From: Thermoplasmatota archaeon
Lineage (GTDB): Archaea > Thermoplasmatota > Thermoplasmata > UBA10834
Direction of reading: 5' to 3'
DNA: 64,000 nt
Assembly: GCA_040751795.1 (NCBI GenBank)
Contig: JBFMHR010000005.1
Span: 74,282-138,281 of the forward strand
A model generated the notes under the pieces. The model searched no databases and was not told where the DNA came from. It saw nothing but the letters and a program-made list of their open reading frames with translations. Both the position numbers and the translations under genes were made by a program. Positions 9,574 to 64,000 of this stretch are shown piece after piece. Positions within the stretch are counted from its first letter, which is position 1. Each line of letters starts with the position of its first letter.

Positions 9574-10032
9574 ATGGTCGCGATCAAGCGGACGGCCACG
9601 ATCGCCTCCCCCCAGGAGGACGCCTTCGAGTACGTGGCGGACTGGAGGAACTTCCCGAACTACGTGCCCATGTTCACCGACATGAGCGTGTCGAGCCTGG
9701 TCCAGTACGGGCCGGGGACATCCGTCGACCTGACCATGCTCTTCGGGGACAAGGTGGAGATGAGGGTCGCCCTGGACATAGTCGACTTCCTGAAGAACCA
9801 GAGGGTGGTGTTCAAGTCCAGCAGGGGGCTCAGGACGAGGATCGCCTGGACCTTCAAGGAGTCGGGCGACAAGACCCTGGTGACCCTGGACTTCGACTTC
9901 GAGATGCCCCCGACCATGAACCTCCGCGAGGCCGAGAAGCTGGCGCTCGCGCAGACGATGGAGGAGGCCTGGGGCAAGAGCCTCGACATGCTCAAGTGGA
10001 TACTCGAGTCGATGCCGAAGCGGGCGGAGTGA
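9574..10032 (+). CDS. SRPBCC (START/polyketide-cyclase-like) family protein
   Basis: About 150 aa from MVAIKRT, with typical SRPBCC beta-grip length and composition. A TATA-like CCCTATATACC lies about 28 nt upstream. Confidence 0.5.
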   Translation: MVAIKRTATIASPQEDAFEYVADWRNFPNYVPMFTDMSVSSLVQYGPGTSVDLTMLFGDKVEMRVALDIVDFLKNQRVVFKSSRGLRTRIAWTFKESGDKTLVTLDFDFEMPPTMNLREAEKLALAQTMEEAWGKSLDMLKWILESMPKRAE

Positions 10033-11747: not shown

Positions 11748-12641
11748 TTGAAGGTGCTTGTCACGGGCTCTTCCGGGCAGCTGGGTTCGTACGTATGCGA
11801 GGCGATGGCCGGCGCGCACGAGGTCTCGGGCATGGACATCGTCCCCTCCGGGCACCCGTCCACGCGCGAGCTGACGGTCCGTGGGGACATAAGGTCGCCC
11901 GCGGACGCCGACAGGGCCGTGAAGGGGGCCGAGGCCGTGGTGCACTGCGCCGCCCAGGTCAGCGTCGAGCGGTCCACGGAGGACCCCCTGTCGGACGCGG
12001 AGACCAACGTGCTCGGCACGGTCAACATGCTCAGGGCCGCGTCACGCTCTGGCGTCCGCAGGTTCGTGTACGTCAGCAGCGCGGCGGTGTACGGCGACCC
12101 GGTCAGGGTCCCGATCGCGGAGGACCACCCGACGGAGCCCCTGAGCAACTACGGGGCCAGCAAGCTCTCGGGGGAGAGGTTCGCCCTCTCCTTCGGGCGC
12201 ACCGCGGGGATGGAGGTCGCCGTCGTGAGGCCCTTCAACTTCTACTCGCCCAGGGCGGACCCGAAGAGCCCCTACTCGGGCGTGATCACCAAGTTCGTCG
12301 CGAGGGTCAGGGACGGGAGGCCGCCCGTCATAGAGGGGGACGGCCTCCAGACCAGGGACTTCATACACGCGAGGGACGTGGCCGCGATGGTCGTCCTCCT
12401 GCTCGGAGCGGACGGGGTCCGGGGGAAGGTCTACAACTGCGGCTCCGGCGTCCCGACGAGCATACTGGACCTGGCGAGGGCGACGGTGTCCGCCTCCGGG
12501 CGGAGGTTGGAGCCGGAGTTCACCGCGCCGAGGAAGGGCGACATAAGGCACAGCCTCGCCGACATGGCGAGGGCGAGGGAGGAGCTCGGCTTCTCCGCGA
12601 AGGTGTCGCTCGCTGACGGCCTTGCGGAACTCGTCAGATGA
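11748..12641 (+). CDS. NAD-dependent nucleotide-sugar epimerase/dehydratase (SDR family)
   Basis: VLVTGSSGQLGS glycine motif and a YGASK catalytic YxxxK. TTG start with a GGAGGTG Shine-Dalgarno-like element 8 nt upstream. Immediately downstream of the oxidoreductase, operon-like. Confidence 0.8.
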   Translation: MKVLVTGSSGQLGSYVCEAMAGAHEVSGMDIVPSGHPSTRELTVRGDIRSPADADRAVKGAEAVVHCAAQVSVERSTEDPLSDAETNVLGTVNMLRAASRSGVRRFVYVSSAAVYGDPVRVPIAEDHPTEPLSNYGASKLSGERFALSFGRTAGMEVAVVRPFNFYSPRADPKSPYSGVITKFVARVRDGRPPVIEGDGLQTRDFIHARDVAAMVVLLLGADGVRGKVYNCGSGVPTSILDLARATVSASGRRLEPEFTAPRKGDIRHSLADMARAREELGFSAKVSLADGLAELVR

Positions 12642-21998: not shown

Positions 21999-22181
21999 GC
22001 CAGTGGCTGAGGCGCGTGTCCCCTATTCAACCTTGCGAGCGCCTGCCTCGTTATCCAAACTGAGATTGCAGGGATAACGTATTTATCTCCACGAATAGGT
22101 AAGTCGGCCTAGCGCGGAGCCAGCGGAGGCGTGGCTAACACGCTGGCCCACGTGACGACCTGCGCGACCAAAGGTGCACCG

Positions 22182-24341: not shown

Positions 24342-24427
24342 TATCGAGTTCTATCTTGAGTACTGTCCAGATTCGAGAGTCACACATCTGGAGCAACTAT
24401 GCGGCTTCTTCTATCACCTCAATCCAC

Positions 24428-25363
24428 TTACTGACCCGGCTCCCAAGTGAATCTGGAAGTGATGGTATCGCACCTTGAACAAGGAGAGAGGTTTCTTCTG
24501 CCATTCGTATTCAATTCGTTTCTGATCCTCGCTAGCTGTTTCCCTCTCCAGATATCGATCATTGTCTCTTTGTTCATATCGCCAACGATGTTCTCATAAT
24601 AGACATCATTGCAGCAAATATGGACGAGTCCAGAGGAATTGACATTGAATTGTCTGAATGGCCAACTGCACCATCTCTTCTGCGTTATCCAATCATCAAC
24701 TCTCCATGTACTCTCTCCCAACCTGTTGGGTGCATTTCCTCCGCGCCTCGTCAGTCTTGCATTCTTGTCCCTGAGCTGAAAGACAATCGTCAAATCCTTT
24801 TCAATCTGAGTTCCGCGGATATCTGAGAGCAATTGCTGCATTCTCGCGCTCATCTTCATGTCATCGGTATAGTCATTTATTCGCAGCAATGCCTTGCCAT
24901 TCAGTCCATTGGAGTAAAGCTCAGTGAGCTTGTCAAAGTCGAGTAGTATGCCATTGGTCCATACCCCAATGCCTGCATGTGGTAAGTTCATCCTGATCTC
25001 GGATATGAACGACGCCATCCTTGAATCTAGCAGGGGTTCATTGTTATGGAACGGGTATATCCATCCCGTGTATCTGAGTTGCTTAAGTTGCCTCACTATC
25101 TCTGAGAATATCTCCTCCTTTAGATGGATGGGTTTCCGCTTATCAACATGCATATTTGCCGGGCAAAATGCGCAATCATTGTTGCATCGATTGAAGGTCT
25201 CAATCTCCACATGGTTGAACAGAGGTGGATCATAGGGATTCCAGTTGCATGAATTCCTCTTAATCTCGCCGTGAACTGTGACTGCCAGTTCGGATATGAG
25301 GGGGATGTGATATCTCTTGAAGTAATGGAATGGTTGTTGCGTCTCGATTACCGTCACCGGCAA
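24428..25363 (-). CDS. Radical SAM enzyme with SPASM/twitch-like C-terminal Cys-rich domain
   Basis: 311 aa. CNNDCAFCP is a CxxxCxxC motif. GEPLL-like and TNG motifs are present. C-terminal CSWPF...HICCND...CSRCD cysteines. It lies in a short low-GC patch flanked by GC-rich DNA. Confidence 0.7.
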   Translation of the reverse strand: MPVTVIETQQPFHYFKRYHIPLISELAVTVHGEIKRNSCNWNPYDPPLFNHVEIETFNRCNNDCAFCPANMHVDKRKPIHLKEEIFSEIVRQLKQLRYTGWIYPFHNNEPLLDSRMASFISEIRMNLPHAGIGVWTNGILLDFDKLTELYSNGLNGKALLRINDYTDDMKMSARMQQLLSDIRGTQIEKDLTIVFQLRDKNARLTRRGGNAPNRLGESTWRVDDWITQKRWCSWPFRQFNVNSSGLVHICCNDVYYENIVGDMNKETMIDIWRGKQLARIRNELNTNGRRNLSPCSRCDTITSRFTWEPGQ

Positions 25364-31483: not shown

Positions 31484-31561
31484 TATATTGCGACCTTGGT
31501 CGAGAGAATGCGCTCGTTCGTATTAATGTGACGATGGCACCGTCTGTATGTGGTTAATCTT

Positions 31562-32623
31562 ATGACTGAGCACTGTCCTCTGCATGGTGTGGCCAATGTC
31601 TGGGGACGCCTGACCGAGGTCGTCGATCGATTCTTCCCACTTGATAGCCCACGAAGGAAGGTAGTCCAGCTAGTATCCGTAGTCCTGTTAGTCGAGGGCA
31701 TTTCGGTTCTTCTCCTCTTTTCCTACGTCGGCCCTCTGCTCGGGCTCATCTCCATTCTACTCGGCGCGGGTCTCATGGCTCTGTTCTTCAGAGCTGAGGA
31801 GGAGCAGCGAGCGCAATCATATGAGCCGCTTGGCATGCGAATCGTATCGACACTCACTAGGAGTATTGGCGGCGAGTATGCGTTGATGGTTCTCGGCGCG
31901 GTTCTGATCATTCTTGTGGTCCTATACAACGCATTTGTCTCGGAGACCCCGGACTACGGAGACGTCGACGTCATAATAATGGTGTTCAGCGGACTGTTGA
32001 TAGTCTTCCCATTCGTGCCAGATCAATGGCGGATTGAGGCGACGTTCGCAGTAGTGTTCATCGGATTCGTCACTCTGCTGTTGGCTGTTCCTCAAGCAAT
32101 CACATCTCTGGGTGGCGAGGGAGACGCTAGCTCCATAGGCAATTGGTATGTCCACTACATGCTCGCGGCCCCATTCGCATCAATCTTGGATCTACTAGGG
32201 ATTCCATCGAGTTCAATCGGGAATCTGGTGACTCTGCAATTCCAGGACGGATCCATTCACACACTGGAGATATCTGCATATTGTGCTGGCCTCTATTCAT
32301 TCTCGATTTTCTTGTCCGCGTTCTTCTCGTACGTATTAGTTCTTGAGAAGCTCAGGGCCAGTGTCTTGGCGGCAGTTCTTGGACTGGGCGTCTTGGTTGC
32401 CTATCTGGGGAACCTCTTCAGGATGGTAGTCGTGGGCGTCGTGGGATACTACTGGGGAATAGAAGCGCTGCATTGGGCTCACCAGAATGCTGGATGGATC
32501 ATCTTCATATCATGGTCGGCGTTGTTCTGGTGGATTATCCTCAGCCGCTTCAGCAGCGATGTGCCCGCGAGAGAAGGTCAGCTGAGTCCAGAGGCGACCC
32601 GAGAGCATGAGGAGACTGACTGA
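31562..32623 (+). CDS. Exosortase/archaeosortase-family polytopic membrane protein (archaeosortase candidate)
   Basis: About 8 TM helices, a conserved-looking Cys in ISAYCAGLYSFS, and an N..R pair in GNLFRMV consistent with the Cys/Arg/Asn catalytic signature of this family. ATG at 31562 with a TATA-like GTATTAATG about 30 nt upstream. First gene after the GC drop. Confidence 0.5.
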   Translation: MTEHCPLHGVANVWGRLTEVVDRFFPLDSPRRKVVQLVSVVLLVEGISVLLLFSYVGPLLGLISILLGAGLMALFFRAEEEQRAQSYEPLGMRIVSTLTRSIGGEYALMVLGAVLIILVVLYNAFVSETPDYGDVDVIIMVFSGLLIVFPFVPDQWRIEATFAVVFIGFVTLLLAVPQAITSLGGEGDASSIGNWYVHYMLAAPFASILDLLGIPSSSIGNLVTLQFQDGSIHTLEISAYCAGLYSFSIFLSAFFSYVLVLEKLRASVLAAVLGLGVLVAYLGNLFRMVVVGVVGYYWGIEALHWAHQNAGWIIFISWSALFWWIILSRFSSDVPAREGQLSPEATREHEETD

Positions 32624-32769: not shown

Positions 32770-33768
32770 CTATAGCGGCTTGGACTCGGAGGGCGGGAAG
32801 AATCTGCGCTTGAGAATCCACGAGCCTACGCGGAATGGATGGGCCTTGATCAGGCTTCTCGTGTTGCAGACCATCCAGCAATCCATGTTGCAGTTCGTCA
32901 CGGCCTTTCTGAGATCGTATTCGTCGATGTTCGCCGCAAATTCGTCCCAACTGCGGTGTTGGGTGATGTTGCCGAGCTTCTTGTTCATCACATTGCACGG
33001 ATAGACATCCCCATTTGGCGCTATGAAGACGTACTCTTTTCCGGCCTCACATGAAGATGTATATCGGTGTCTCTCGCCGACGTCGATTATCCCGTTTGTG
33101 TGATATGCTCTCAGCCAGTCCTTCGCGTGTTTCGAATGGAGCTGGGCTTCAACGACTGAGGCTATGCTATTCGAGTCACTGATCCCACTGCTCGTTTCAG
33201 TAGGGTTGTCATCTTTGCAGAAGTAAACATCAGAGTTGTGGACATGGACGCACGTGAATTCGACGTCAAGGCCGCGAGCCAGGGCAAAGACGTCTCGTAC
33301 TTCCTTTGAATTCTCACGCATGATGGTCATTGCGATTCTTAGGTCGCGTATCCCGAGATTCTTGAGGGCAGTCACTGTGGTCAGGGCCTTATCATAGGCT
33401 CCTTCAATTCCTCTGATGGTATCGTGTGTCTTTCCTATGCCATCGATGGACACACCAACGCCCACGCGAGGGTGGAAGTGCATTATCTCCTTGATCGTCG
33501 ACGTGATTCGCGCAGTCAGAAACCCGTTCGTCGAGAACACTATCCGAGAAGATGGGACAATGCTGTGAATCTCTCTTATGACTTCTACTAAGTCATGGCG
33601 AAGAAATGGCTCTCCGCCGGTTATGTTGATTGTTTTGAGGGATGGCGGTATCTTGTGATAATCCGCAGGTGTCATCTCTGCGCCAGGATCCAGCTTCCAG
33701 ATGTTACACATGCTGCACTTGGAATTGCACCTGTAAGTGACAGCGATAAAAGCCTCTCGGATCCTCAC
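32770..33768 (-). CDS. Radical SAM enzyme with SPASM-like C-terminal domain
   Basis: YRCNSKCSMCN is a CxxxCxxC motif near the N-terminus. GGEPFL and STNG motifs are present. C-terminal cysteines (CEAG...YPCNVM...CNMDCWMVC). Confidence 0.7.
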   Translation of the reverse strand: MRIREAFIAVTYRCNSKCSMCNIWKLDPGAEMTPADYHKIPPSLKTINITGGEPFLRHDLVEVIREIHSIVPSSRIVFSTNGFLTARITSTIKEIMHFHPRVGVGVSIDGIGKTHDTIRGIEGAYDKALTTVTALKNLGIRDLRIAMTIMRENSKEVRDVFALARGLDVEFTCVHVHNSDVYFCKDDNPTETSSGISDSNSIASVVEAQLHSKHAKDWLRAYHTNGIIDVGERHRYTSSCEAGKEYVFIAPNGDVYPCNVMNKKLGNITQHRSWDEFAANIDEYDLRKAVTNCNMDCWMVCNTRSLIKAHPFRVGSWILKRRFFPPSESKPL

Positions 33769-36948: not shown

Positions 36949-38073
36949 TCAGCCTCCGCTCGCACCTGTCAAAGGTGGACTGAGAGCATCGAGCAATGCC
37001 TCTACCACTGTCGACACCTCATCACGGGTCATTTGAGGAAACATTGGCAGAGATAGCACAGACTCAGATACAGCCTCCGTTATTGGCAGTTTGAAATCAT
37101 GGCTACTTTTCTTGTACGACTCCTGCAGATGGACGGGTACGGGATAATGTATGCTTGTCCCTATTCCTCTCGAATTCAGTTCCTTCTGAAGGCGCTGTCT
37201 GTTCTCCGTTCTGATGACGAATTGATGATAGACATGTGTGGCATGTGGTGCTTCGATGGGCAGGACTATGCTCGCATTCCCTAATCCGTTCCGGTACATT
37301 CGGGCTATGTCTCTGCGTTTCGCATTCCAGTCATCAAGATGTCCCAACTTCACTCTCAACACTGCCGCTTGAATCTCGTCGAGTCTGCTATTAATGCCTA
37401 CTGTTTCGTAGTAATATTTCTGGGATTGTCCATAGTTGCTCATCTTGCTCACTTTCTCTGCAATTTCCTCGTTGCTTGTCACCACGATTCCTGCATCTCC
37501 GTAAGCGCCCATGTTTTTCGTCGGGTAAAAGCTGAAACATGCAGCGTCTGCTAGTGACCCGACCCTCCTGCCTTGGTACGTGGCGCCATGTGCCTGGCAC
37601 GCGTCTTCGATGACAAAGATGTCCTTGTCTTCAGCAATCTCCATGATTTCATCCATTCTTGATGGATGTCCGTAGATGTGGACCGGGAGAATCGCCTTCG
37701 TCCTGTCCCCGATTTTTTCTCGTATTTTTGAGGCATCGATGCAGTATGTATGGGGGTCAATATCAACTAGAATTGGTCTTGCTCCATTCCTCGTTATGGC
37801 ATCGACAGTTGAAATGAACGTGTGAGCAGTTGTGATCACTTCATCACCCGGGCCAATTCCAAGCGCCCTAATTGTCGTCAGAAGGGCATCTGAGCCTGAA
37901 TTGACTCCAATGCCAAACCTCGTTCCCACATATGCGGAAAACTCCGATTCAAAGGCTCTACATTCCGCGCCATTGACAAACTGGCCAACGGTGAGCACCC
38001 TCTCAATTGAGTCGAGAACAGCCTCTCCAATCTCTTCAAGTTCTCTCGAAAGGTCGATCGATTTCACAGACAT
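36949..38073 (-). CDS. DegT/DnrJ/EryC1/StrS-family PLP-dependent sugar aminotransferase (FdtB/QdtB/WbpE-like)
   Basis: 374 aa with the characteristic family layout. Candidate PLP-Lys at SFYPTKNMGAYGDAG. Confidence 0.85.
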   Translation of the reverse strand: MSVKSIDLSRELEEIGEAVLDSIERVLTVGQFVNGAECRAFESEFSAYVGTRFGIGVNSGSDALLTTIRALGIGPGDEVITTAHTFISTVDAITRNGARPILVDIDPHTYCIDASKIREKIGDRTKAILPVHIYGHPSRMDEIMEIAEDKDIFVIEDACQAHGATYQGRRVGSLADAACFSFYPTKNMGAYGDAGIVVTSNEEIAEKVSKMSNYGQSQKYYYETVGINSRLDEIQAAVLRVKLGHLDDWNAKRRDIARMYRNGLGNASIVLPIEAPHATHVYHQFVIRTENRQRLQKELNSRGIGTSIHYPVPVHLQESYKKSSHDFKLPITEAVSESVLSLPMFPQMTRDEVSTVVEALLDALSPPLTGASGG

Positions 38074-38147
38074 GGTGGTTTCGCCGCATCATTCAAGTAG
38101 TCATATTCATGAAGAAAGGACATGCATGGGTCTGCAAACACACACGT

Positions 38148-39095
38148 TTACTCCCAATTGACCTCATAAGTATCATACACCGTCGCTCTCGCGCCAAAGG
38201 TGCTCTTGTAGTCTGATAGACTGGAATTTAGATATTGGCCTGCATTTTCTGTAGAAATCCCGAAATCAAAGTACCTCTTGTCGATATAGTATTCGTTTAT
38301 CAAATAGTCTAGCACGCAGTCCACAACGTGCGATTTCCTTCCCGCTTCGGTTGAGGCGATGTACTGAGTGTGCGCGACGTTCCTGCTTTCATACATGATC
38401 ACACCTCCTTCCATGCGCCCGTCAATCACACCGGCGAACAGTCTTATGTTCTCCGGGAATCTCTGAGCTAGAAGAATCATCTCTTCCTTTGTGTGCGTAG
38501 GTCTGACGCCGTGTCTAGATTCCAAACACTTCTTCTCGATTTCCATATAGTTTCCGAAATCGGAGCTTTCCTCGACCTCTGTGCCACGAGACTGAGCCTT
38601 CCTAACACACCACCGACGTTCCTTGGCGAAAGGTGTCCTTTCTGGCATGAAAATAGTGGAGGAGACATCTCGCCTAACTAGCTTCGCATCCGTGAGAAAG
38701 AGGGCGTACAAATCCTCTTCTGCTGGAATGGAATGATAGATGTGTGGTATAGCTTTGTACACGAGCTTCTTGATGCCCATCTCCTTCAGGTGTTTCCCTA
38801 AATCATGAAAGAGATCTACCATGTCCGTGGCCCTCAGTCTGCTATCCGTTATAATTCCCCCGAACGTTAATCCTGCATGACTTGTCATCACGTCTCCTTC
38901 AATAGTGGCTGGCATGACTGCCGTTAAGTCCATGACATCGAAGAAGAATAGCAGAGAACTGTCCCTGAATCTATCCGAATGGTAGTCCATGTACTTCCTA
39001 TCGAAGAGGAATAGTCCATTTCTCGAAGCCTTAACGAATTGATTCCAGCTATCTTCAAGTTCGGGACTATATGCGGTGATTCTGAACATATCCAA
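38148..39095 (-). CDS. FemAB/BioF2-like GNAT-fold acyl(aminoacyl)transferase candidate
   Basis: 315 aa. Two-lobed layout and local similarity pattern recall the Acetyltransf_6/FemAB clan. Weak call from sequence alone. Confidence 0.35.
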   Translation of the reverse strand: MDMFRITAYSPELEDSWNQFVKASRNGLFLFDRKYMDYHSDRFRDSSLLFFFDVMDLTAVMPATIEGDVMTSHAGLTFGGIITDSRLRATDMVDLFHDLGKHLKEMGIKKLVYKAIPHIYHSIPAEEDLYALFLTDAKLVRRDVSSTIFMPERTPFAKERRWCVRKAQSRGTEVEESSDFGNYMEIEKKCLESRHGVRPTHTKEEMILLAQRFPENIRLFAGVIDGRMEGGVIMYESRNVAHTQYIASTEAGRKSHVVDCVLDYLINEYYIDKRYFDFGISTENAGQYLNSSLSDYKSTFGARATVYDTYEVNWE

Positions 39096-39106
39096 CCCTT
39101 AGTGCC

Positions 39107-40018
39107 TCAGATTTCCAACTCTGCGTAACCGAATCCGGTTCTGCCCATATCGTTCCCGTTGTAGAACATAATCGTCCTTTCCCGGACTCGTATTGTGGCA
39201 GGGTAGCACAAATGTTTCGAATCCCACCCCTCCTTTGACAGTGAGATTCCTGCTTCAGAATCCTTCCTTATCCATGAGATTCCATCTTTGGATTCAGCAT
39301 ATCCTGGGATGTAGTCCCCGGTGAGAGTCCCCTTCGTATAGAACATGCAATAGGTATCTCCATCTTTGACTACTCTTGGTCTTCCGATTCGGTACTCGTT
39401 TTCAGTATTATCGATGCAAACCGTCCCTCGGTCTGGGAAATGGATTCCGTCCCTCGACTCGTAGAGCCTGATGTTGTACCTCGGATACGGTTTACCCCCG
39501 ATAGTCTCCCAGCCACTTCCGACGCCGCACCAGGCTCTCCAGATGCCGTTCTCTCTGAGAACGGAGTGTATCGCCCTTATGTACAATCCGTCGTCCGATC
39601 GGTCAAGGATGGGAGTGTTGCTGCATCGCTGGAATCTCTCCCCGCCATCCACACTGACTGCTAGGCCACTGAATGCCAAGAACTTCACTTTCTCCACCAA
39701 TTGGAAGCCAACATAATACATCAGCAACTTCCTGCCGAGTTGCGCAATATCGCCAAGAATCACTCCATTGTCATCGAAACAACCAGGCAGGCCGACGTCG
39801 AGGACTGGGCTATCTGACACCGCTACAATCCTTGATGGTTTGTCGGCGTCAACATCCACATAGCCGATTCTACTTGCTCCCGTATTGTCGCGCATTCCTG
39901 CATAGACGCGAATCTTGTCATCTTCCAGTTGAATCGGAGTCGGCGTTAAAGCGGAGTGTTGTGACCAGTTGGATCGCCCATTTGGGCAATAGACTAACCC
40001 CATCTTTTTCCACTTCAA
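39107..40018 (-). CDS. Five-bladed beta-propeller glycosidase/phosphorylase-like protein (GH43/GH130-superfamily-like)
   Basis: Repeated S/T-x-DG-x-x-(W/F) blade motifs (SVDGGERF, SRDGIHF, SKDGISW) and a C-terminal FYNGND. Family assignment tentative. Confidence 0.35.
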   Translation of the reverse strand: MKWKKMGLVYCPNGRSNWSQHSALTPTPIQLEDDKIRVYAGMRDNTGASRIGYVDVDADKPSRIVAVSDSPVLDVGLPGCFDDNGVILGDIAQLGRKLLMYYVGFQLVEKVKFLAFSGLAVSVDGGERFQRCSNTPILDRSDDGLYIRAIHSVLRENGIWRAWCGVGSGWETIGGKPYPRYNIRLYESRDGIHFPDRGTVCIDNTENEYRIGRPRVVKDGDTYCMFYTKGTLTGDYIPGYAESKDGISWIRKDSEAGISLSKEGWDSKHLCYPATIRVRERTIMFYNGNDMGRTGFGYAELEI

Positions 40019-40021
40019 GAG

Positions 40022-40705
40022 TTATTCCTCACTTACTCCAAAGCTCTCGTAACTGCTCTTGTCGAGAGGGCGCGCAGGATTTCCAACGCACACCTTTCCA
40101 GGCTCGGTATCTCTGATTACTACAGCACCCGAGCCAACAATACAGTCTTTCGCGATTTTGATGCGATCATTATACGTGCTATTCACACCGAGGAAGCAGT
40201 TTTCGCCGATGTCACAGTAACCTGATATGACGCAGTGTGAGGACACGTAACAGTTATCGCGGATGTAAGTTCGATGGCCCACGTGGTTGCCACTCCAGAG
40301 TACCACATTGTTGCCAATCTTGACCTTGTGTTGAAGGACGTTGTTTTCGAATATGAATGAATTCTCGCCAATCTCTACATTGTGCCAAACGAAAGCCTTT
40401 GAACTGACGTAGGATACGAGTCGAAACCCCTTTTTCTTCACTTCGTTATACAGCCTCGTCCTCACTCGGTTGAGCTGGGTATAGGTCACCGCGACATAGA
40501 CGCTGTATTTGGATGGGCTAAAGATCTTATCCAGTTCCTCGAATGGTACCACCGGCAGGCCGAGCAGATCCTTCTCTTTCAGGAAATCTCTCTCGACTGA
40601 GAACGCCACAACTTCGTATTGGGAGTCATGCGTGAAGTACTCGTATGCAATTTGAGCGAACTCACCCGCTCCGACGATGATGATCTGGCCTTTCTTGTCC
40701 CTCAT
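40022..40705 (-). CDS. NeuD/PglD/WbpD-like sugar N-acetyltransferase (hexapeptide LbH with N-terminal Rossmann-like domain)
   Basis: IIIVGAGEFAQ N-terminal motif followed by isoleucine-rich hexapeptide repeats (IGENSFI..., IGNNVVL..., IGENCFLG...). Confidence 0.7.
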   Translation of the reverse strand: MRDKKGQIIIVGAGEFAQIAYEYFTHDSQYEVVAFSVERDFLKEKDLLGLPVVPFEELDKIFSPSKYSVYVAVTYTQLNRVRTRLYNEVKKKGFRLVSYVSSKAFVWHNVEIGENSFIFENNVLQHKVKIGNNVVLWSGNHVGHRTYIRDNCYVSSHCVISGYCDIGENCFLGVNSTYNDRIKIAKDCIVGSGAVVIRDTEPGKVCVGNPARPLDKSSYESFGVSEE

Positions 40706-41160
40706 ATCCGCTTATCCTCCCTCGGGGTTCCGCTCTTGCCCCCGCTCGCTTTCCTTCGACCTACCATCTTGAGGAATACTTGTTTGTCCCTAATGTAGTC
40801 CTCGACCTTGTAGAAATCTGATGCAAGAACCAAGCAGACGGCTCCTGATGAGAAGTTGTCAAGTTTCCTCCATGTCATTGGTGGAATGTACAAACCGTAG
40901 TGAGCTCTGTTGAGGTGAAACCGCTTGCGGTTCTTCCCATCTTCAAGTACGACATCGAAGCTGCCACTCATGGCAATCATCAGCTGCTCGAGTCTCCTAT
41001 GCGCATGTTCTCCTCTTTCCTCTCCTCCTGGAACATCATAGAGATAGTATATTCGTTTGATGTCGAATGGGATATGACGCGTTGATTCTACAAATGTGAG
41101 ATTGCCCTTTTCGTTTGCGATTTTTGGGAGGCTCACAATCCTGCAATCGGCTAGCGACAT
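40702..41160 (-). CDS. WxcM/FdtA-like cupin sugar 3,4-ketoisomerase
   Basis: MSLADCRIVSLPKIANEKGNLTFVE...IPFDIKRIYYLYDVP matches the FdtA/QdtA N-terminal signature. 4-nt overlap with the downstream acetyltransferase. Confidence 0.65.
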   Translation of the reverse strand: MSLADCRIVSLPKIANEKGNLTFVESTRHIPFDIKRIYYLYDVPGGEERGEHAHRRLEQLMIAMSGSFDVVLEDGKNRKRFHLNRAHYGLYIPPMTWRKLDNFSSGAVCLVLASDFYKVEDYIRDKQVFLKMVGRRKASGGKSGTPREDKRI

Positions 41161-41238
41161 AATCTCACCTTCTGCGCGCCAAATGCGGCTCAAACGACAT
41201 TTGCATATCACCATACACTACGTTTGCTGTTCCGCTAA

Positions 41239-42723
41239 CTATTGTCGAGGTATTCTGGGCGATATGGATCGTATGAAGCACCACAGCCTTGCTCTTTCCG
41301 TCTCATCTAGAATGGCTATCACGAATATAAAGGATGCAGCGACCGATATCACACACTTCGGCCAGAATACAATCTCATCATTCCAGCAGAATACCGAGGC
41401 AATTGCGATGATACTCAGTCCTCCGAGCCAAGAACTCTTCAGGCGAGAATCAGAACGGAAGCCATGTCTTCTAATCAGATAAATGAATGCGAACGCGACG
41501 TACACGGAATTGACTACAACGTACGAAATGCCCACGCCCTCAAGGGAACTCAAGACGTCCATTGCTCCCAAGGAAATGGTCAAGAACCCCATCGACGAAC
41601 AGCACTCGAGGGCGAGGAAAGTTCGCACGTCTGCATACGCAAACATAGGCATTGCAAGAACCCATCCCGTCACCCTCATGTAGTCTCCCACGAGCATCCA
41701 CCTAGTCATGCTCGTCGCCTCCAGGAACTCCCCTGAAAACAGGAGTGAGATCACGAATTGCTTTGCGGTAACGATGAATACGGCGATGGGCACAATAATC
41801 ATGATAGAGATTCTGAGGTAATCTCTGATTAGCGAGAGTTTCTCGCCTTGAGCATTAGTCTTGCTGAGAGTCGGAAGGTAGTAAGTGCCGCACGATACAA
41901 GAATAGCACCAACATATGTCATACTTAGAGACCAAGCAGCATTGAAAACACCTGCCTTGTCCATCCCTCCATTTTGGATGATTGACAGCCGGACTATGAG
42001 CAGGACGAAGGATGAGAGGAGTGCCGTTGCCAGCGTTGTTCCAGCGAGCGAGACGAAGTGCCGGACCGACTCTTTGTCGAAAGACTCGCGGAGCCTGAGC
42101 ACTAGCGGCTTGATCCATCCATTTCGCAAGGCCACGTAAAGATTCAAGACCAGACTCATCGAGGAAGTGGCAGTCATCAGCCAGACAAGCGCAAGAAGGT
42201 AGCCACTATCTGCAGCTAAGCACACCGGGTAGGCAATCGCTGCGTTAGTGCCTGCGACTACAATTTGGATTACGGCCATACGACCTATAGCACGGTATCC
42301 ATTGAGGATACCTGCAAAGTACGTGGCAAATGCGTTCAGGGCCACCGGCAGTGAAAGGAAACGAACCAACCACACATTCACTGAATCGCCAGATCCCAGC
42401 ACTGCAGGTGCAATCACTGGCGCCGTAATGACAAGCGCGAGAGCAGTCACGAACCCGCCAATGAGGAATATCAGAAAGATGGCACGGACATATCTCTCTC
42501 TCGCTGCCTTTTCCCTGCGGGCGATTCCCTGCACTAGCGCTGGTCCGCCCGCCAGAGTTGCCAGCAGTCCTGATGTTTGGCTCATTTGAATTAGCATTGA
42601 GTATAGGCCCACGCCTGCTGGGCCAAGAATCACCGCCATGATCTTTGATGAGGCCACGCCAAGAAGCGAGGAGACTGCGAATCCCCCGCTCGTTTTGGAC
42701 ATTGCCTTGAGGATGTCACGCAT
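41239..42723 (-). CDS. Wzx-like polysaccharide/oligosaccharide flippase (MOP superfamily)
   Basis: About 495 aa with 12-14 TM helices. N-terminal MRDILKAMSKTSGGFAVSSLLGVASSKIMAVILGPAGVGLY is typical of polysaccharide biosynthesis export proteins. Confidence 0.75.
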   Translation of the reverse strand: MRDILKAMSKTSGGFAVSSLLGVASSKIMAVILGPAGVGLYSMLIQMSQTSGLLATLAGGPALVQGIARREKAARERYVRAIFLIFLIGGFVTALALVITAPVIAPAVLGSGDSVNVWLVRFLSLPVALNAFATYFAGILNGYRAIGRMAVIQIVVAGTNAAIAYPVCLAADSGYLLALVWLMTATSSMSLVLNLYVALRNGWIKPLVLRLRESFDKESVRHFVSLAGTTLATALLSSFVLLIVRLSIIQNGGMDKAGVFNAAWSLSMTYVGAILVSCGTYYLPTLSKTNAQGEKLSLIRDYLRISIMIIVPIAVFIVTAKQFVISLLFSGEFLEATSMTRWMLVGDYMRVTGWVLAMPMFAYADVRTFLALECCSSMGFLTISLGAMDVLSSLEGVGISYVVVNSVYVAFAFIYLIRRHGFRSDSRLKSSWLGGLSIIAIASVFCWNDEIVFWPKCVISVAASFIFVIAILDETERARLWCFIRSISPRIPRQ

Positions 42724-43091
42724 ATTCCAGGTCAGCTCCGAACGGACCTTCGAATGGCACTGGTCAGTCACGTCTCAGCGCTCATGCGCCACCTGGTAGA
42801 GAAAGCCCTCTAGGTTCATCTTGGTTTCGCACTCATTTGGCACATCAACCGCATTGAGGGGAATCGGTTTCATAGGATTCAATTGGCTATGCATCATCTC
42901 TCGTTCAGCGGTAGAGGGATGGCCACACCTTTCGAGTGGTCACATGGCATGCTTCGCGCGTTGAGCATGGGATTCCTCTTTTCAGTCAATTGCGAAGGTA
43001 TTTGCGTTTTCAAACGCAATTATGACGTCGGCCCTGGTACAGCACTCTATCCGACACTATGATGGGTAGCTGAACCATTTGCTATCAATTC

Positions 43092-44100
43092 TTGTGCAAG
43101 AATATTAATGTGCGGTCCAAGCCATTTGCCAATTGGCAGACAGGTCAGCAGGTCGGTTGCCACGGAAATCGTATTGCCTCGTGGGATAGTCAACTCTTCC
43201 GGATAGACGAGCACGGACACGTTTCCCTAGATTCCGACGAACTGTCCATCGACTTCGAACGCTATGACGATGTTGCGATCCAAGGTCTCCACCTGGCCAT
43301 GATCACCATCAGGAGGTATGCTGATGAGTTCCCATTCTGGCAGAGGCGGAAGAGGGTGGGCAGACCAGGGACGGACGAGCGCACTCTGCGGATAGTTCTC
43401 ATGCTCCAGCAGCTCATCGGCCTCTCCTTCCGGGAGGCTGATGGCACCCTGTCTTTGGCCTGAGAGTACTAATGGATCGGACACGTGCTCGTCCATTCGA
43501 CGATGTCCAGGACGCTCTCGCCCATGAGGTGGTCCACGATCCCGGACAGGTTCTTCGAGCATCTCATCACACCCCTGCCGGAACGCGATGCGGTCGTGGT
43601 CTCTGATGCTGCGGACTGCAGCGACAGGTGACGTGCCTGGCGCGTCATGGAGAGTTGGTGCAAAGCTGTGTGCTCATTGAAATGGACAGGTTCGCCATGC
43701 TGTCGTTCGGGTTCACCAACTCGAACATACACGAGAGCCAGGTGTTCGAGACAGTTTGGAGCGCTCTCCCAAGCAACGTCGTCCCGATGCAGAGCCTCGC
43801 CGACTCCAGCTACGTGGGGAATGACTGACTGGCTGTTGCCAGGCTGCGCGGGAAGACTTCGCTCCACAAAATCAAGAGGCACTCGAAGAGCTGCGAGGAT
43901 CCGGAGATGTCTTACGAGAAGCTGGTGAACTTCGCGCACCGCTAGCCGAACCGGAGCCATGTCGGAATCGTGTTTAGCATGGTCGACAGCCCGCTTGGTT
44001 ATCCATTGAGTTGTCGGACAAGGAGAGGGCGAAGAAACGACGTGAGGACGAAGTACTGCTTGCTAGACATGGTTCAGATGGCCATGATGCCTGGGTTCTG
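43092..44100 (+). mobile_element. Decayed IS4/IS5-superfamily transposase remnant (pseudogene, multiple frameshifts/stops)
   Basis: Frame 1 has an N-terminal-type motif (KRVGRPGTDERTLRIVLMLQQLIGLSFREADG). Downstream in other frames are DDE-region-like fragments (AVVVSDAADCS; LADSSYVGND). No intact ORF. Terminal inverted repeats not identified. Confidence 0.4.
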
Positions 44101-51248: not shown

Positions 51249-52535
51249 TCATTGAATGCGTAATCGTTCGTAGAGCGTTATTGCGAACCAGAGTCTCCTT
51301 CTAGATGACACCCACATTCTAAAGCGGAGCATCCTAGCGGATAGACGATCGGCAGCACCGACGTCCGGAAGAGGGCGATGGTACTCTGGAACGGTCCTTC
51401 CCTTTCTTGCCAGGTAGCGAATCATGGCTGCTCTGCGCCTCTGCAAGTAGTCGATAGATTGTGATTCTTGGACATCCTCTTTGCTCGCTATTCTGATATC
51501 GACCATGCCAGATTGCGCCGCCCTCTCGATGAGCGATATTGCCGAGCCTGTCCTAGCTATGACCAGAGACGTCCCAGACCTATCACCAGAAAAACGGGGG
51601 AGCCATGCATCCATGAATGAAGCATCTGAGAGTTCTGCGGTCTTGTCAATGCATAATGTGCACCGTGGTGGAAAGAAGAACTTGTGAAAGATAAGTCCCC
51701 AGTATGATTTCGAGCCAAAAGGTATGGTCCTCCGGCTCCCATCGCGCAGTTGCAGGGAGAGGACCCCCGGCCACCCTCCTCCACGGTAGGAAATCTCGGC
51801 AACCATCTCCTTCGAAATCCCATTTCGTCTCAGAAGATATTCTGTGGCATGATGCGAGGGCGTGTGGTTGCATACGAGGCCGAAGATTAGGACAATCCGT
51901 TCCTTCAATTCTGGATAGACCTCCATAGCCTTGCATATTCCGTGAATGTGGCAAGGGAGACCAATTACTGCGTATCTGCCTGGATTGGCGAGCAGCTCTC
52001 GCAGTGCGGTGTTGGCTGACACCGGGCAGTATTTCGACCCCGCGGAAGAGAGTATATCCTCGCGAGTCCGAGCTAGAAATGTCGCAGGTTCAAGCGGAGA
52101 TGACTGATTCATCCCTGTGACTAGAGCTGCGTCGATGATTCCCGCATCTAATGCAAACACTAGAAGTGAAGTAGCAAGCCCACCAGATGATGATGATACT
52201 CGGATACCGATGTCTGCAGCATTGCCGGCGAACACCTCCTTGATACAGCCTGCATTGGAATCATCAGGTCGTTTCCCGAAGCGGGCAATATTCAGTCCAT
52301 CGAGATCGACAGAGTGCCCAGGACATGTTCTCAGGCACTTCCTGCAACTGACGCATATGCCATCTCTTACTGATGGGGTTTGTATGCCTAAGCGGTCATC
52401 AGTGCAAATTGCGATGGCACGAGTCTCACAGATTGATACGCATGTTCCACAGCCTGTGCAGAGTCCATGTTCGACCACGGACGAGATATTCCGCCATTGC
52501 GACACCGTTTCCACTTGAGTGTCACCGGCATACAA
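51249..52535 (-). CDS. Coenzyme F420 hydrogenase/dehydrogenase beta-subunit-like (FrhB/FdhB family) protein with N-terminal 2x[4Fe-4S] ferredoxin domain
   Basis: CTGCGTCVSICE and CVSCRKCLRTCP cluster motifs, then an FrhB-like flavin-binding body. Adjacent to a pyruvyl transferase, as in many bacterial polysaccharide loci. Confidence 0.65.
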   Translation of the reverse strand: MYAGDTQVETVSQWRNISSVVEHGLCTGCGTCVSICETRAIAICTDDRLGIQTPSVRDGICVSCRKCLRTCPGHSVDLDGLNIARFGKRPDDSNAGCIKEVFAGNAADIGIRVSSSSGGLATSLLVFALDAGIIDAALVTGMNQSSPLEPATFLARTREDILSSAGSKYCPVSANTALRELLANPGRYAVIGLPCHIHGICKAMEVYPELKERIVLIFGLVCNHTPSHHATEYLLRRNGISKEMVAEISYRGGGWPGVLSLQLRDGSRRTIPFGSKSYWGLIFHKFFFPPRCTLCIDKTAELSDASFMDAWLPRFSGDRSGTSLVIARTGSAISLIERAAQSGMVDIRIASKEDVQESQSIDYLQRRRAAMIRYLARKGRTVPEYHRPLPDVGAADRLSARMLRFRMWVSSRRRLWFAITLYERLRIQ

Positions 52536-52873
52536 TATCGCACTGGCTATTCAAACTCTCCGCCACTTGAGCCGCAGCGATAGGTCTGCTCATCGAGCTT
52601 GGATATGTTTGAAGACACAGATCACGAGCGGGAGAACTCAGGGAGTCTGCAATTGTCATTGGGTGTGCCCACCCCGCAACGTCAACCCCGCAGATTCGTT
52701 GTCTTCCCTGAGGCAGTTGTCGTAGGGCATTACGGTGAACCCCATCCCGCATGGTGGCTGCCGATTGACCATTGGCGCAATCTTGGCTGAGTGCCTATGG
52801 CAAGACCTGCATCAAACCATCAACAGAAGTCCGTTCGCAGTTGATGGAGCAGATACCTCAATCCTTCCTGTCC

Positions 52874-54145
52874 TCACATGTTCTTCTGCACGACGCGCTC
52901 TGAGATCAATTCTGCCGTTCTCCTTGCCAACGCCTGGATCTCCGGGATCCTATCCAGGAGTGTTCGTCTGATCTGCGTTCGTCTTTCCCATGCGTCTTCG
53001 ACTGTTTCCAGCAATCGCTCAGGGGGGTCATCCCAATTACGAACATACTGGTCCTGGCCTGCCATTGACATTATTCCCGGCGTCTTGTTGCTGTATGAGA
53101 TTGCCACCGTGGGGACATGCATCGTGAGTGCAGCAATGTTGGCGTGCATACGAGCACCGATGAAGAGGGTGCATAGTCCGATGATTCCTCGTATCACTTC
53201 TGGCTGATATGCACCTTCTATCACGAACACTCTTTCGCGATATTTGGATTTCTTTGCAGCGGCAACAGCGATGTCCCGATCATTCGGGTTCAGATTTGGG
53301 TCAGTGACATGAGGTATGAAGACAACATCAACATCGTGTTCCTCAATCATGTGATCTGCAAGCTCTGCGAGATTAAGCAGGTACTCCCCAGCTGCCACCC
53401 CTTCTCTTGAGCGAGAGAACCTGAAAAGGAGCTCGCTCGGTGCTATTCCGACAAGCGGGCGTCCGTTGTCCACCGGAATTCGCTCCATCTTCAGGGTTTC
53501 CCTGGCTTCGTTCTCCGAAATCGCCCCCAGGAGGAATGCGCCATCTGCAGTCATAAGCACTTCCTGTTTCACTCCAATCTGAATCAGATAGTTTCTGCTA
53601 ATCTCCTCTCGGACAATCAGCAAGTCCACTCTATCAAGAAAGAATCGTGCGATTCTCCTGGCGATTCCATTGCGGAAGGGACCGATTGACTGGGAGTGAA
53701 TGACTACCGGGACTCTTAGGATAATGCACCAGAAGAACGGGAGCCATGACCTGACGGAACGTACGACTCCAAAATCATCGGTTAGCCCGTCACCCGACAG
53801 ATTCACGACAACGTCTGATCTCTTGTATTCGCTCTTCCTCGTCTCTCCGCCAACTAGCTCAATCCTCAGACATCTCTCGAGGACTATCAGAATGGTTTCT
53901 GCGAATATCCTGATGTTGGATACATCATGAGGAATCCTGATGGCTAGTGCGGTCTCGAAGCGTCTGTCTCTTTCGGGACTATAGGAGATGAACGTGATCG
54001 CAGGGTTCTCGAATACTCTCCTAATCTCCATGATCGCGGACAGAACTATGGATGCCGTCCCTCGATTCCTCGAGAGTTCTGCCCCGACTAGCAAGAATCT
54101 CAGGCCAGTCATTGCTATTATCAGACTGGAGTGAATTGACTGCAC
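52874..54145 (-). CDS. Polysaccharide pyruvyl transferase (CsaB/WcaK family)
   Basis: 423 aa with the VVNLSGDGLTDDFG block and overall PS_pyruv_trans layout. Confidence 0.7.
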   Translation of the reverse strand: MQSIHSSLIIAMTGLRFLLVGAELSRNRGTASIVLSAIMEIRRVFENPAITFISYSPERDRRFETALAIRIPHDVSNIRIFAETILIVLERCLRIELVGGETRKSEYKRSDVVVNLSGDGLTDDFGVVRSVRSWLPFFWCIILRVPVVIHSQSIGPFRNGIARRIARFFLDRVDLLIVREEISRNYLIQIGVKQEVLMTADGAFLLGAISENEARETLKMERIPVDNGRPLVGIAPSELLFRFSRSREGVAAGEYLLNLAELADHMIEEHDVDVVFIPHVTDPNLNPNDRDIAVAAAKKSKYRERVFVIEGAYQPEVIRGIIGLCTLFIGARMHANIAALTMHVPTVAISYSNKTPGIMSMAGQDQYVRNWDDPPERLLETVEDAWERRTQIRRTLLDRIPEIQALARRTAELISERVVQKNM

Positions 54146-62582: not shown

Positions 62583-63170
62583 ATGCCCACCCACTTCACG
62601 TCCCCGAAGGGAAGGATTGCAGTCTTCGTCGACAGGGACGGAACGATATGTTTCGACAGACACTATCTTGCGGATCCAGATGGCCTTGAGCTGATACCTA
62701 CGGTGATTGAAGGCATCAAGAAGCTCAATGACGTGGGTCTGCCCGTCATAGTGGTGACGAACCAGTCCGGAATAGCCAGGGGCAAGTTCGACGAGAAGCG
62801 ATTGGATGAGATCCATGCGAGGTTGCGCGGGCTTTTGTCTGCAGGCGGCGCTCACATAGACGACCTCTTCTTCTGTCCTCATATGCCGGATGCAGGGTGC
62901 AGATGCAGGAAACCCGCTGTGGGGATGCTCCTGGATGCAGCCGATAGACATGGAATCCACCTGAAAGGGTCGTTCATGATTGGGGATAGGATGATGGACA
63001 TCGAGATGGCACACAAGGTGGGTGCCAGGGCCGCGTTGGTTCCGGAGCCCGGCGACCAGTACGACGTCGCGTCTGAGATGAGACTGTCGAGGGAGAGACC
63101 AGACATCCAGTTGAATACGTTCGTCGAAGCAGTGGATTGGATTCTGGGCAATATCAGAGATGAACCGTAG
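62583..63170 (+). CDS. gmhB: D,D-heptose-1,7-bisphosphate phosphatase (HAD family, GmhB-like)
   Basis: VFVDRDGTI HAD motif I. VVTNQSGIARG. CPHMPDAGCRCRKP zinc-binding loop typical of GmhB. Confidence 0.75.
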   Translation: MPTHFTSPKGRIAVFVDRDGTICFDRHYLADPDGLELIPTVIEGIKKLNDVGLPVIVVTNQSGIARGKFDEKRLDEIHARLRGLLSAGGAHIDDLFFCPHMPDAGCRCRKPAVGMLLDAADRHGIHLKGSFMIGDRMMDIEMAHKVGARAALVPEPGDQYDVASEMRLSRERPDIQLNTFVEAVDWILGNIRDEP

Positions 63171-64000
63171 TGTTCTCGCCCACGACCAGTCTCTCTCCTT
63201 TGGGGAGCATGCCCGCCGAACTGAGTATCTTCGACCCTCTGCCGATGACGCTTCTGACGATCTTGCGTTCCACGTTGATGACGGCGTCCTCCATGACCAT
63301 GGAGTCGTCGACCTCGGCTGACGATATCTGGCACCTGTCCCCCACTGCGGTGTAGGGGCCGATGTACGCCCCTGGGCCTATCTTGCACCCTTCGCCGATT
63401 ATCGCCGGTCCCCTGACGACGGACCTTCCAGTGACTACCGTCCCCTTGCCAATCCTGACCCTCCCAACCACAGAGGAGCCAGATTCGATCTTTCCATCGT
63501 TCAATGATTCGATTCCATCGAGGATGAGGTGGTTCGCATCGAGAATGTCATCAGGCCTTCCTGTGTCCTTCCACCATCCCTCGACGCGGTGAGGCGTGAC
63601 CTTGTAACCCGCATCTATCAGCATGGAGATCGCGTCGGTTATCTCCATCTCATTCCTCCAGGAGGGCCTCAACCTGGGATACACCTCGAAGAAGGTGGAG
63701 TTGAAGGCGTAGATACCTATCACTGCCAGGTCCGACTTCGGTTCCTTCGGCTTCTCCACGGTCCTGAGCACGGTCTTCCCGTCCTCAGACAGCTCCGCGA
63801 TGCCATACCTCTGGGGCTCCTTCACGGGCATGAGGGATATCACACAGTCAGCCTTCTCTTCGGCCATCTTCTTCGGGATCTCCCGGATGCCCGATTTCAG
63901 CAGGTTGTCTCCGAGGTAGACTATGAACGGGTCGTCACCCATGAACTCCTTTGAGCAGTTCACCGCATGGGCGATACCCATGGGCTTCCCCTGCACGATG
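63154..64000 (-). CDS. Sugar-1-phosphate nucleotidyltransferase with C-terminal left-handed beta-helix, partial (N-terminus beyond window end)
   Basis: The C-terminal part of an NTP-transferase domain (LGDNLL, EKPK) is followed by LbH repeats (IGKGTVVTGRSVV, IGEGCKIGPGAYIGPYT). Convergent with gmhB, 17-nt overlap. Confidence 0.7.
   Translation of the reverse strand, partial: IVQGKPMGIAHAVNCSKEFMGDDPFIVYLGDNLLKSGIREIPKKMAEEKADCVISLMPVKEPQRYGIAELSEDGKTVLRTVEKPKEPKSDLAVIGIYAFNSTFFEVYPRLRPSWRNEMEITDAISMLIDAGYKVTPHRVEGWWKDTGRPDDILDANHLILDGIESLNDGKIESGSSVVGRVRIGKGTVVTGRSVVRGPAIIGEGCKIGPGAYIGPYTAVGDRCQISSAEVDDSMVMEDAVINVERKIVRSVIGRGSKILSSAGMLPKGERLVVGENTTVHL

Follow-up and report, generated by a model that had tools for sequence, protein, structure and literature searches.

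Among described routes to dTDP-linked amino sugars, the closest to the system considered here are the fdt, qdt and wlaR pathways, represented by FdtA/B/C of Aneurinibacillus, QdtA/B/C of Thermoanaerobacterium and WlaRA/RB/RG of Campylobacter jejuni, in which a ketoisomerase and a C3 DegT aminotransferase operate alongside a QdtC/FdtC-type acyltransferase. A related locus is present in a Thermoplasmatota archaeon, within a 64,000-nucleotide stretch of contig JBFMHR010000005.1 (positions 74,282 to 138,281 of the forward strand; assembly GCA_040751795.1), hereafter the window. Six co-directional minus-strand genes at 36949-42771 encode, in order of transcription, a Wzx flippase, an FdtA-type ketoisomerase, an acetyltransferase, a beta-propeller protein, a tandem-GNAT protein and a DegT aminotransferase. 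The locus shares with the fdt, qdt and wlaR pathways the ketoisomerase, the C3-type DegT enzyme and presumably the dTDP-4-keto-6-deoxyglucose substrate furnished by RmlA and RmlB; however, its acyltransferase is of the PglD/PerB type, and its propeller and tandem GNAT are without counterpart in those pathways. We are highly confident that the genes following wzx constitute one conserved module, and that its product is derived from dTDP-3-amino-3,6-dideoxyhexose. The six genes are as follows.

41239..42771, minus strand: Wzx-type flippase, first gene of the co-directional run (PF13440, 46.9 bits; PF01943, 40 bits)
40702..41160, minus strand: FdtA/QdtA-family dTDP-4-keto-6-deoxyglucose 3,4-ketoisomerase (PF05523, 189.7 bits)
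40022..40705, minus strand: NeuD/PglD/PerB-type left-handed beta-helix N-acyltransferase (TIGR03570, 194.1 bits)
39107..40018, minus strand: cytoplasmic five-bladed propeller, GH130-like and predicted to be circularly permuted (AlphaFold2 (AF2), Foldseek and HMMER)
38148..39095, minus strand: tandem-GNAT protein with the fold of Fem and other aminoacyl-tRNA-dependent transferases (AF2 and Foldseek)
36949..38073, minus strand: DegT-family pyridoxal phosphate-dependent aminotransferase, C3-type by its nearest relatives (PF01041, 422 bits)

A preliminary description of this DNA had listed the last five of these open reading frames (ORFs); all are present at the coordinates it gave, and our domain assignments agree with it. 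The 4-nt overlap that it described is also confirmed: the end of the ketoisomerase gene, AAG CGG ATA TGA, has the acyltransferase start, ATG AGG GAC, nested in it through a shared ATGA. The gaps that follow are 3 nt (acyltransferase-propeller), 11 nt (propeller-GNAT) and 74 nt (GNAT-DegT), and the overlap together with the 3-11-nt gaps indicate co-translation. The ketoisomerase ORF itself spans 40702-41214 (170 aa), with homology beginning only at Met19, i.e. at 41160. The flippase gene resembles WzxE, the lipid III flippase (NF011679, 85 bits, below cut-off).

Evidence for a functional unit comes from its conservation. A scan of one genome per species yielded 254 loci encoding a relative of the propeller, and the best 80 were analyzed together with two archaeal loci (Methanobacterium and Bathyarchaeia) found by exact-protein look-up. 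The resulting 82 loci cover Pseudomonadota, Planctomycetota, Bacillota, Bacteroidota, Chlamydiota, Cyanobacteriota, Bathyarchaeia and Methanobacterium, and their gene content was scored by tblastn with the window proteins. All five genes occur together in 69 of the 70 fully flanked loci, and the exact gene order of the window recurs in 50 of the 82. The acetyltransferase gene lies directly upstream of the propeller gene in 80 loci, and the tandem GNAT is encoded in all 82, within 200 bp downstream in 72. The order of this triad is fixed save for occasional inserts of tailoring genes and one reordered locus (L067), and its three proteins are 40-70% identical across phyla. FdtA and DegT, on the other hand, sometimes shift as a pair to either side of it. 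The preliminary description had pictured the propeller and GNAT as two extra genes bracketed by a sugar-biosynthetic trio; the comparison inverts that picture, with acetyltransferase, propeller and GNAT forming the invariant core and FdtA and DegT the mobile parts. Of the dTDP-3-acetamido-3,6-dideoxyhexose-type sugar proposed at the same time, the 3-amino-3,6-dideoxy portion stands, but an invariant core of this kind implies that the end product is probably not plain Fuc3NAc or Qui3NAc.

The same counts bear on the suggestion that the five genes are chance neighbors in a mosaic glycosylation island. They do lie in a low-GC island (~32-62 kb of the window) with insertion sequence (IS)-like fragments and many mixed glycan genes. 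Yet their co-occurrence in bacteria as well as archaea, the identical order in most loci, and the tight overlap and gaps make coincidence so improbable as to be negligible.

The module is widespread and its surroundings are informative. Homologs sharing 50-70% identity number in the thousands for the propeller and likewise for the tandem GNAT; they come from bacteria and archaea, and the two kinds are often encoded on one contig. In bacterial loci rmlA, rmlB and rmlD are frequently close by, and in many of them a Wzx homolog follows the module. Culturable carriers include Pseudomonas, Xanthomonas arboricola (e.g. CFBP 2528), Francisella philomiragia (e.g. ATCC 25015), Clostridium frigidicarnis and Ruegeria sp. 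TM1040, the last with a compact megaplasmid island between unrelated genes that consists of a GT41-like glycosyltransferase, the triad, a GT2 enzyme, DegT and FdtA. No match was found in 5,426 E. coli genomes when the triad of an enterobacterium served as query in a distant-mode blastn search. Variant loci carry TylF-type methyltransferase genes between propeller and GNAT, PhyH dioxygenase genes, an FkbM methyltransferase gene, a KAS III gene directly upstream of the acetyltransferase gene, or a thiolase gene after the GNAT gene; such tailoring genes beside the core fit an acyl or aminoacyl group that can be modified. The thiolase was seen in Methanobacterium, and KAS III in a Planctomycetota bacterium and a Peptococcaceae bacterium; thiolase or KAS III genes abutting the core lie at 10864-12042 of L001, 5934-6965 of L014 and 6054-7112 of L068. 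These variants hint at capping with a C4 acyl group, e.g. 3-hydroxybutyryl, in place of acetyl.

The first enzyme of the module is securely placed. The FdtA signature reported earlier for the cupin is borne out by PF05523, its sole Pfam family, at 189.7 bits against a cut-off of 23, with 129 of 131 profile positions covered. Among solved structures the nearest are 3,4-ketoisomerases: 5tpu (1.8e-37), 7n67 (7e-36), FdtA 2pa7 (5e-33), QdtA 4o9e (4e-27) and also WlaRA 5tpv. In alignments with 5tpu and 7n67, RGEHAH (His70/His72 in the numbering of the 170-aa ORF) falls opposite their RGAHAH, and it corresponds to the catalytic histidine pair of FdtA, His49/His51, in an R-G-x-H-A-H motif. An RmlC-type epimerase, which the preliminary description had named as the identity that would overturn its pathway, is ruled out, as the cupin belongs to the FdtA family and has no match to PF00908. 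Across the 82 loci, identity of FdtA to the window copy is bimodal (35-45% versus 50-70%), and the two groups may represent gluco- and galacto-type isomerases feeding the same triad. Two tandem FdtA paralogs occur in some loci (L003, L021, L038 and L062), reminiscent of WlaRA/WlaRB of C. jejuni.

The DegT protein is predicted to be a C3 aminotransferase by the company it keeps. Its bit scores to C3 enzymes are 350 (QdtB), 349 (DesV), 306 (WlaRG) and 270 (WbpE), against ~200 (PerA), ~185-199 (ArnB) and ~130 (WecE-type) for C4 enzymes, the C3 and C4 labels being those of PMC7725333. A C4-aminotransferase, the other identity foreseen as fatal to the earlier pathway, is rejected because C4 enzymes score lower; likewise, the protein is only 29% identical to the C4 enzyme of the E. 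coli O121 antigen locus. Matches in the Protein Data Bank (PDB) follow the same order (QdtB 1e-103, DesV 2.8e-103, WlaRG 2.9e-90, WbpE 3.7e-79) and are headed by 7b0d (8.8e-142), the closest solved relative at ~62% identity, whose function is not stated; 7n63 is also among the best. Regiospecificity for C3 is thus suggested by relationship.

The acetyltransferase matches TIGR03570 (NeuD/PglB/VioB) at 194.1 bits against a cut-off of 160.8, over 201 of 202 profile positions, and has a PglD_N domain (26.1 bits against 23.4). In alignments, His144 takes the place of the catalytic histidine in PglD and PerB (EH and DH motifs), and the protein scores 70.8 bits with PglD versus 49.5 with QdtC. Of the two labels it had been given, NeuD/PglD-like therefore holds and FdtC-like does not: an enzyme of the FdtC/QdtC type, with no N-terminal domain and no catalytic base, has the wrong architecture. 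In having every feature of a nucleotide-sugar N-acetyltransferase, the protein would also suit a simpler arrangement, in which FdtA, DegT and the acetyltransferase make dTDP-3-acetamido-3,6-dideoxyhexose (plain Fuc3NAc or Qui3NAc) and the two remaining proteins modify the glycan. In that arrangement the Fem-like protein would O-aminoacylate a hydroxyl of the sugar or of a lipid-linked glycan, much as MprF/aaPGS act on phosphatidylglycerol, and the propeller would hydrolyze or phosphorolyze a glycosidic bond during assembly. We regard this as rather unlikely: the core proteins are soluble, cytoplasmic and 40-70% identical across phyla whose glycans necessarily differ, which is atypical of glycan-level modifiers, and a single small substrate shared by these enzymes is suggested by the strict adjacency of the triad, together with its link to FdtA and DegT.

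The two proteins most difficult to assign, encoded at 38148-39095 and 39107-40018, were annotated with hidden Markov model profiles, AF2 models and Foldseek. For the tandem GNAT, the model (predicted local distance difference test, pLDDT, 95.6) has as its Foldseek ranks 1-10 first Sba18 and Sbb17, then Weissella FemX and MprF/aaPGS, with template-modeling (TM) scores of 0.59-0.72, as opposed to 0.38-0.53 for tandem GNATs that use acetyl-CoA. Sba18 and Sbb17 are aminoacyl-tRNA-dependent peptide synthases whose PDB entries carry the ligand streptothrisamine, an amino-sugar intermediate; Sba18 and Sbb17 aminoacylate an amino sugar, and FemX acts on a nucleotide-linked substrate. A profile built from 42 relatives of this tandem GNAT matches Sbb17 and Sba18 (E 2e-4, C-terminal domain). 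The lysine in the FK(x)GFG motif of these two enzymes, whose counterpart in FemX is the conserved C-terminal Lys305, is matched by the invariant K297. The CoA-binding motif [QR]xxGx[GA] is missing in 39 of the 42 members, the window protein among them. Like the Fem-fold enzymes, then, this is a tandem GNAT with no CoA motif and with a conserved C-terminal lysine in a K-x-x-F-G motif; unlike them, since they act in the synthesis of peptidoglycan, lipids or antibiotics, it is encoded in a surface-glycan locus. Remote membership of the Fem superfamily is supported by the predicted fold, and this, with the profile match, suggests that aminoacyl-tRNA may be the donor. Aminoacylation, offered earlier as a guess for this gene, is accordingly the reading with the best fold and profile support. 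The presence among the structural matches of MprF and PGS, which are O-aminoacyl transferases, would also suit a protein that decorates a finished plain sugar. In Pfam, the only match is to PF13480 (Acetyltransf_6, 29.9 bits). The closest NCBIfam model is that of the FemAB protein associated with PEP-CTERM/exosortase systems (TIGR03019), but membership of this equivalog is rejected (33.7 bits against a cut-off of 260), and the link that it suggests to an archaeosortase-like gene of the window (see below) may be coincidental.

The propeller proved the least conventional of the five. Its AF2 model (pLDDT 92.1) has five blades, the N-terminal strand closing the last one, and no signal peptide or membrane segment was detected, as is expected where the N-terminal strand belongs to the fold. 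The top Foldseek matches are GH130 beta-1,2-mannoside phosphorylases (TM 0.72-0.75, 16-18% identity), followed by GH43 and GH32. With HMMER, GH130 enzymes align to the protein as two segments in swapped order: in PDB 9fj8 and 7fip, the C-terminal half of the propeller matches the N-terminal half of the phosphorylase, and vice versa. An artificially permuted sequence (residues 127-303, then 1-126) aligns colinearly over 205-220 residues, and the same permutation lengthens the match to the Pfam GH130 family (PF04041) from 74 to 196 residues, raising it from 22.8 to 25.0 bits against a cut-off of 26. These alignments indicate a circular permutation of the propeller with respect to GH130 enzymes. 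Its match to NF052550 is 38.6 bits against a cut-off of 450. The position of the GH130 EDPR motif, which presumably holds the catalytic aspartate, is occupied by an invariant GRPR (R213) in 42 of 42 aligned homologs, and the HRR stretch of the GH130 sequence aligns with YNG. With scores below cut-off, the aspartate motif lost and the topology permuted, a canonical GH130 phosphorylase is rejected; the earlier designation as a GH43/GH130-like propeller is thus right as to a GH130-like fold but not as to canonical GH130 membership. The comparison with described GH130 phosphorylases (Teth514_1788/1789, Lin0857) is of the same kind: these enzymes also have five blades and a similar size, and are the best structural and sequence matches, but they serve mannan catabolism, while the context of the window protein is nucleotide-sugar synthesis.

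Conservation gives an indication of what the propeller works on. The 42 homologs have a mean column identity of 68%, and the protein is 55-70% identical across phyla, equal to or above FdtA and DegT, which favors a small molecule of constant structure over a variable glycan as its substrate. The invariant residues D82, D83, N84, R148, H151, E208, R210 and R213 lie at the starts of the blades' inner strands, the usual location of the active site in the propeller fold. At E<=1e-30 the family comprises 544 clusters (50% identity), nearly all of single-domain proteins of ~305 aa. The search of representative proteins was topped by P0241, a 5844-aa metagenomic protein in which blade-like repeats recur dozens of times (47 stretches matched). 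Since only single blades are alike, this giant protein probably has nothing to do with the module. Trimming of the glycan, one of the roles first suggested for the propeller, is unlikely given its small-molecule-enzyme-like conservation and its want of a signal peptide or membrane segment; extracellular trimming specifically is rejected for the missing signal peptide. The acidic D82, D83 and E208 kept in a GH-type pocket would accord with a propeller that cleaves glycosidic bonds behind a plain Fuc3NAc or Qui3NAc pathway, although the change of EDPR to GRPR argues against it.

The fold of the propeller is also the starting point for a different proposal, namely that it is a dedicated GH130-fold glycosyl-transfer enzyme acting at the anomeric carbon of a dTDP-sugar, for which the other four genes would build the donor. 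It would either pass the sugar to a fixed acceptor or release the nucleotide; GH130-fold GT108 enzymes use GDP-mannose or mannose-1-phosphate. The closest folds are indeed enzymes that make or break glycosyl-phosphate bonds, and the pocket is lined by numerous invariant residues (Arg, His and Lys). We nevertheless consider glycosyl transfer improbable, as the conservation far exceeds the norm for glycosyltransferases, GRPR replaces EDPR and YNG aligns to the HRR of GH130, and every locus already has ordinary GT2 or GT4 glycosyltransferases.

Propellers more distant from that of the window (34-37% identity) occur in a second type of module, together with a DegT protein, a WbqC-family protein and a methyltransferase, in Bernardetia, Peteryoungia and Rhizobium leguminosarum. 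The second type usually has the same kind of acetyltransferase (45-48% identity), such that the acetyltransferase-propeller pair behaves as a portable unit; its DegT protein, on the other hand, is 44-58% identical to that of E. coli O121 and ~30% identical to that of the window. Loci L084 (pRlvE 7998-9934 of R. leguminosarum), L086 and L087 are of this type, and Rhizobium has two propellers in tandem. That propeller and acetyltransferase are paired here as well, next to a C4 aminotransferase and WbqC, would also be expected of a glycosyl-transfer enzyme.

The supply of substrate is partly encoded in the window. A gene at its right edge, missing from the preliminary description, encodes the first enzyme:

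63154..63996, minus strand: long-form glucose-1-phosphate thymidylyltransferase, RmlA (TIGR01208, 321.8 bits against a cut-off of 320.25)

Its 5' end runs past the window, and a full-length 358-aa NCBI protein (P0391) is 100% identical to it. As previously noted, there is no RmlB in the window: tblastn with archaeal RmlB matches only a short-chain dehydrogenase/reductase at 11748-12641 (29% identity), which is LegB/GalE-like and falls below every NCBIfam cut-off. A contig from a related Thermoplasmatota organism has rmlD, rmlC and an rmlB-like gene just upstream of rmlA, and by this analogy RmlB is likely to be encoded just beyond position 64000.

Taken together, these observations lead us to propose, tentatively and with somewhat less than even confidence, that the Wzx-FdtA-left-handed beta-helix-propeller-tandem GNAT-DegT operon is a horizontally mobile module that supplies a lipid-linked surface glycan with a decorated dTDP-3-amino-3,6-dideoxyhexose, the sugar being aminoacylated from aminoacyl-tRNA and then N-acylated. 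At the level of family assignments, RmlA would form dTDP-glucose, RmlB, probably just outside the window, would convert it to dTDP-4-keto-6-deoxyglucose, the cupin would shift the keto group to C3, and the DegT enzyme would aminate C3. The Fem-like tandem GNAT may then move an amino acid from aminoacyl-tRNA onto the new 3-amino group, and the PglD-type acetyltransferase may cap the new alpha-amine with acetyl or, in variant loci, another short acyl group. The product would be a 3-(N-acyl-aminoacyl)amino-3,6-dideoxyhexose; sugars of this type are known in O-antigens of Pseudoalteromonas and Aeromonas, with Qui3N(AlaAc) made by Pseudoalteromonas haloplanktis ATCC 14393 and Aeromonas salmonicida 80204-1. 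The propeller would work on the same intermediate, a small molecule in the cytoplasm, and would most likely bind it or react with it at its sugar or sugar-phosphate end. A chemical precedent for this proposal is provided by two O-antigen components, Qui3N(N-acetyl-D-Ala) and Qui3N(N-acetyl-L-Ala) (PMC3210612).

Several observations count against it. RmlB is not seen in the 64 kb. The gluco and galacto products are not separable, as the solved ketoisomerases score in mixed order (5tpu, 7n67, FdtA, WxcM-like, QdtA, WlaRA). The Pfam FemAB model, PF02388, gives no match to the tandem GNAT and is recorded for 2 of 120 homologs; identity to verified tRNA-dependent enzymes is 12-14%, and the E value of 2e-4 applies to one domain. 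No tRNA or aminoacyl-tRNA synthetase genes adjoin the module (tRNA genes were checked in the window and 60 loci), although the absence of tRNA genes is uninformative because Fem enzymes use housekeeping tRNAs. The acetyltransferase could N-acetylate the sugar 3-amine itself, which would leave no amine for the Fem-like enzyme. Finally, the E. coli O121 locus, compared below, is without a propeller, so the proposal leaves the invariance of the propeller here unexplained.

It is enticing to speculate further that the acetyltransferase-propeller-GNAT core carries out undescribed nucleotide-sugar chemistry, a bolder idea that we hold to be possible but doubtful. The GNAT would then perform tRNA-dependent aminoacylation of a dTDP-amino sugar, a reaction that would be widespread among surface glycans of bacteria and archaea. 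With the propeller, evolution would have turned a circularly permuted GH130 fold to a use other than phosphorolysis, with the N-aminoacyl sugar as substrate; the reaction may be aminoacyl processing or stereo-inversion, or may take place at the anomeric phosphate. On the same idea, the acetyltransferase-propeller pair may be portable between C3-amino (FdtA/Fem-like) and C4-amino (VioA/WbqC) modules.

The genomic setting accords with mobility. Most glycan genes of the window sit in the low-GC island (48-55% in a genome of 65-69% GC), whose right border lies near the native-looking rmlA, and this suggests that the whole glycosylation region was acquired horizontally. Besides the module, the island encodes GT4 and GT2 glycosyltransferases, a WecA/MraY-family transferase, a pyruvyl transferase with an FrhB-like partner, methyltransferases, radical SAM/SPASM proteins, an archaeosortase-C-like protein and a GHMP sugar kinase. 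At 43092-43960, between wzx and the next GT2 gene, short overlapping ORFs with no family matches look like IS or transposase remnants, consistent with a mosaic island. At 51249-54145 (minus strand), a gene for an FrhB/FdhB-like iron-sulfur flavoprotein adjoins one for a polysaccharide pyruvyl transferase (CsaB/WcaK-like), and the island's glycan is probably also pyruvylated. At the left edge of the island, the gene for the archaeosortase-C-like protein (31550-32623, plus strand; exosortase/archaeosortase signature above cut-off) adjoins that of a radical SAM/SPASM enzyme (32770-33768, minus strand). Outside the island, and without relation to the module, a local GC dip (0.548) at 22131-25363 contains an S8 subtilase gene (736 aa) and, after it, a second gene of the radical SAM/SPASM type.

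Amino sugars with N-aminoacyl or other complex N-acyl groups frequently serve as antigenic determinants in O-antigens and capsules. In open-access full text we found no described enzyme for attaching amino acids to such sugars and no description of the module, the latter being weak evidence of absence. The module is of interest as a concrete candidate enzyme set for attaching an amino acid, with propeller relatives in at least 254 species-representative loci. If the GNAT does use aminoacyl-tRNA, components of translation would be tied to surface-glycan diversity in bacteria and archaea. The propeller, for its part, would represent a new function for the GH130 fold, in permuted form. In this genome, the low-GC island points to the uptake of a bacterial-style rare-sugar pathway by a Thermoplasmatota archaeon.

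A final comparison is with the E. coli O121 antigen locus, whose gene order is DegT-WbqC-small GNAT-wzx. The O121 antigen presumably carries N-acetylglycyl-Qui4N. N-acetylglycyl is among the known N-acyl groups of Qui4N (PMC3210612), and WbqC has been found in operons with a dedicated prolyl-tRNA synthetase and an unusual tRNA (PMC10404621). The O121 locus is without a propeller and without FdtA, unlike that of the window, which implies that the propeller is dispensable for a simple N-acetylglycyl group. The enzymes differ as well, a C4 aminotransferase, WbqC and a small GNAT in O121 standing against a C3-type DegT, a Fem-like tandem GNAT and a beta-helix enzyme in the archaeon. In both loci, however, an aminotransferase, a candidate aminoacyl transferase and an acetyltransferase adjoin one another near wzx. 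This parallel, in which the aminoacyl-adding enzyme is either WbqC or Fem-like and the acetyltransferase either a small GNAT or a beta-helix protein, supports a model of aminoacylation followed by acetylation.

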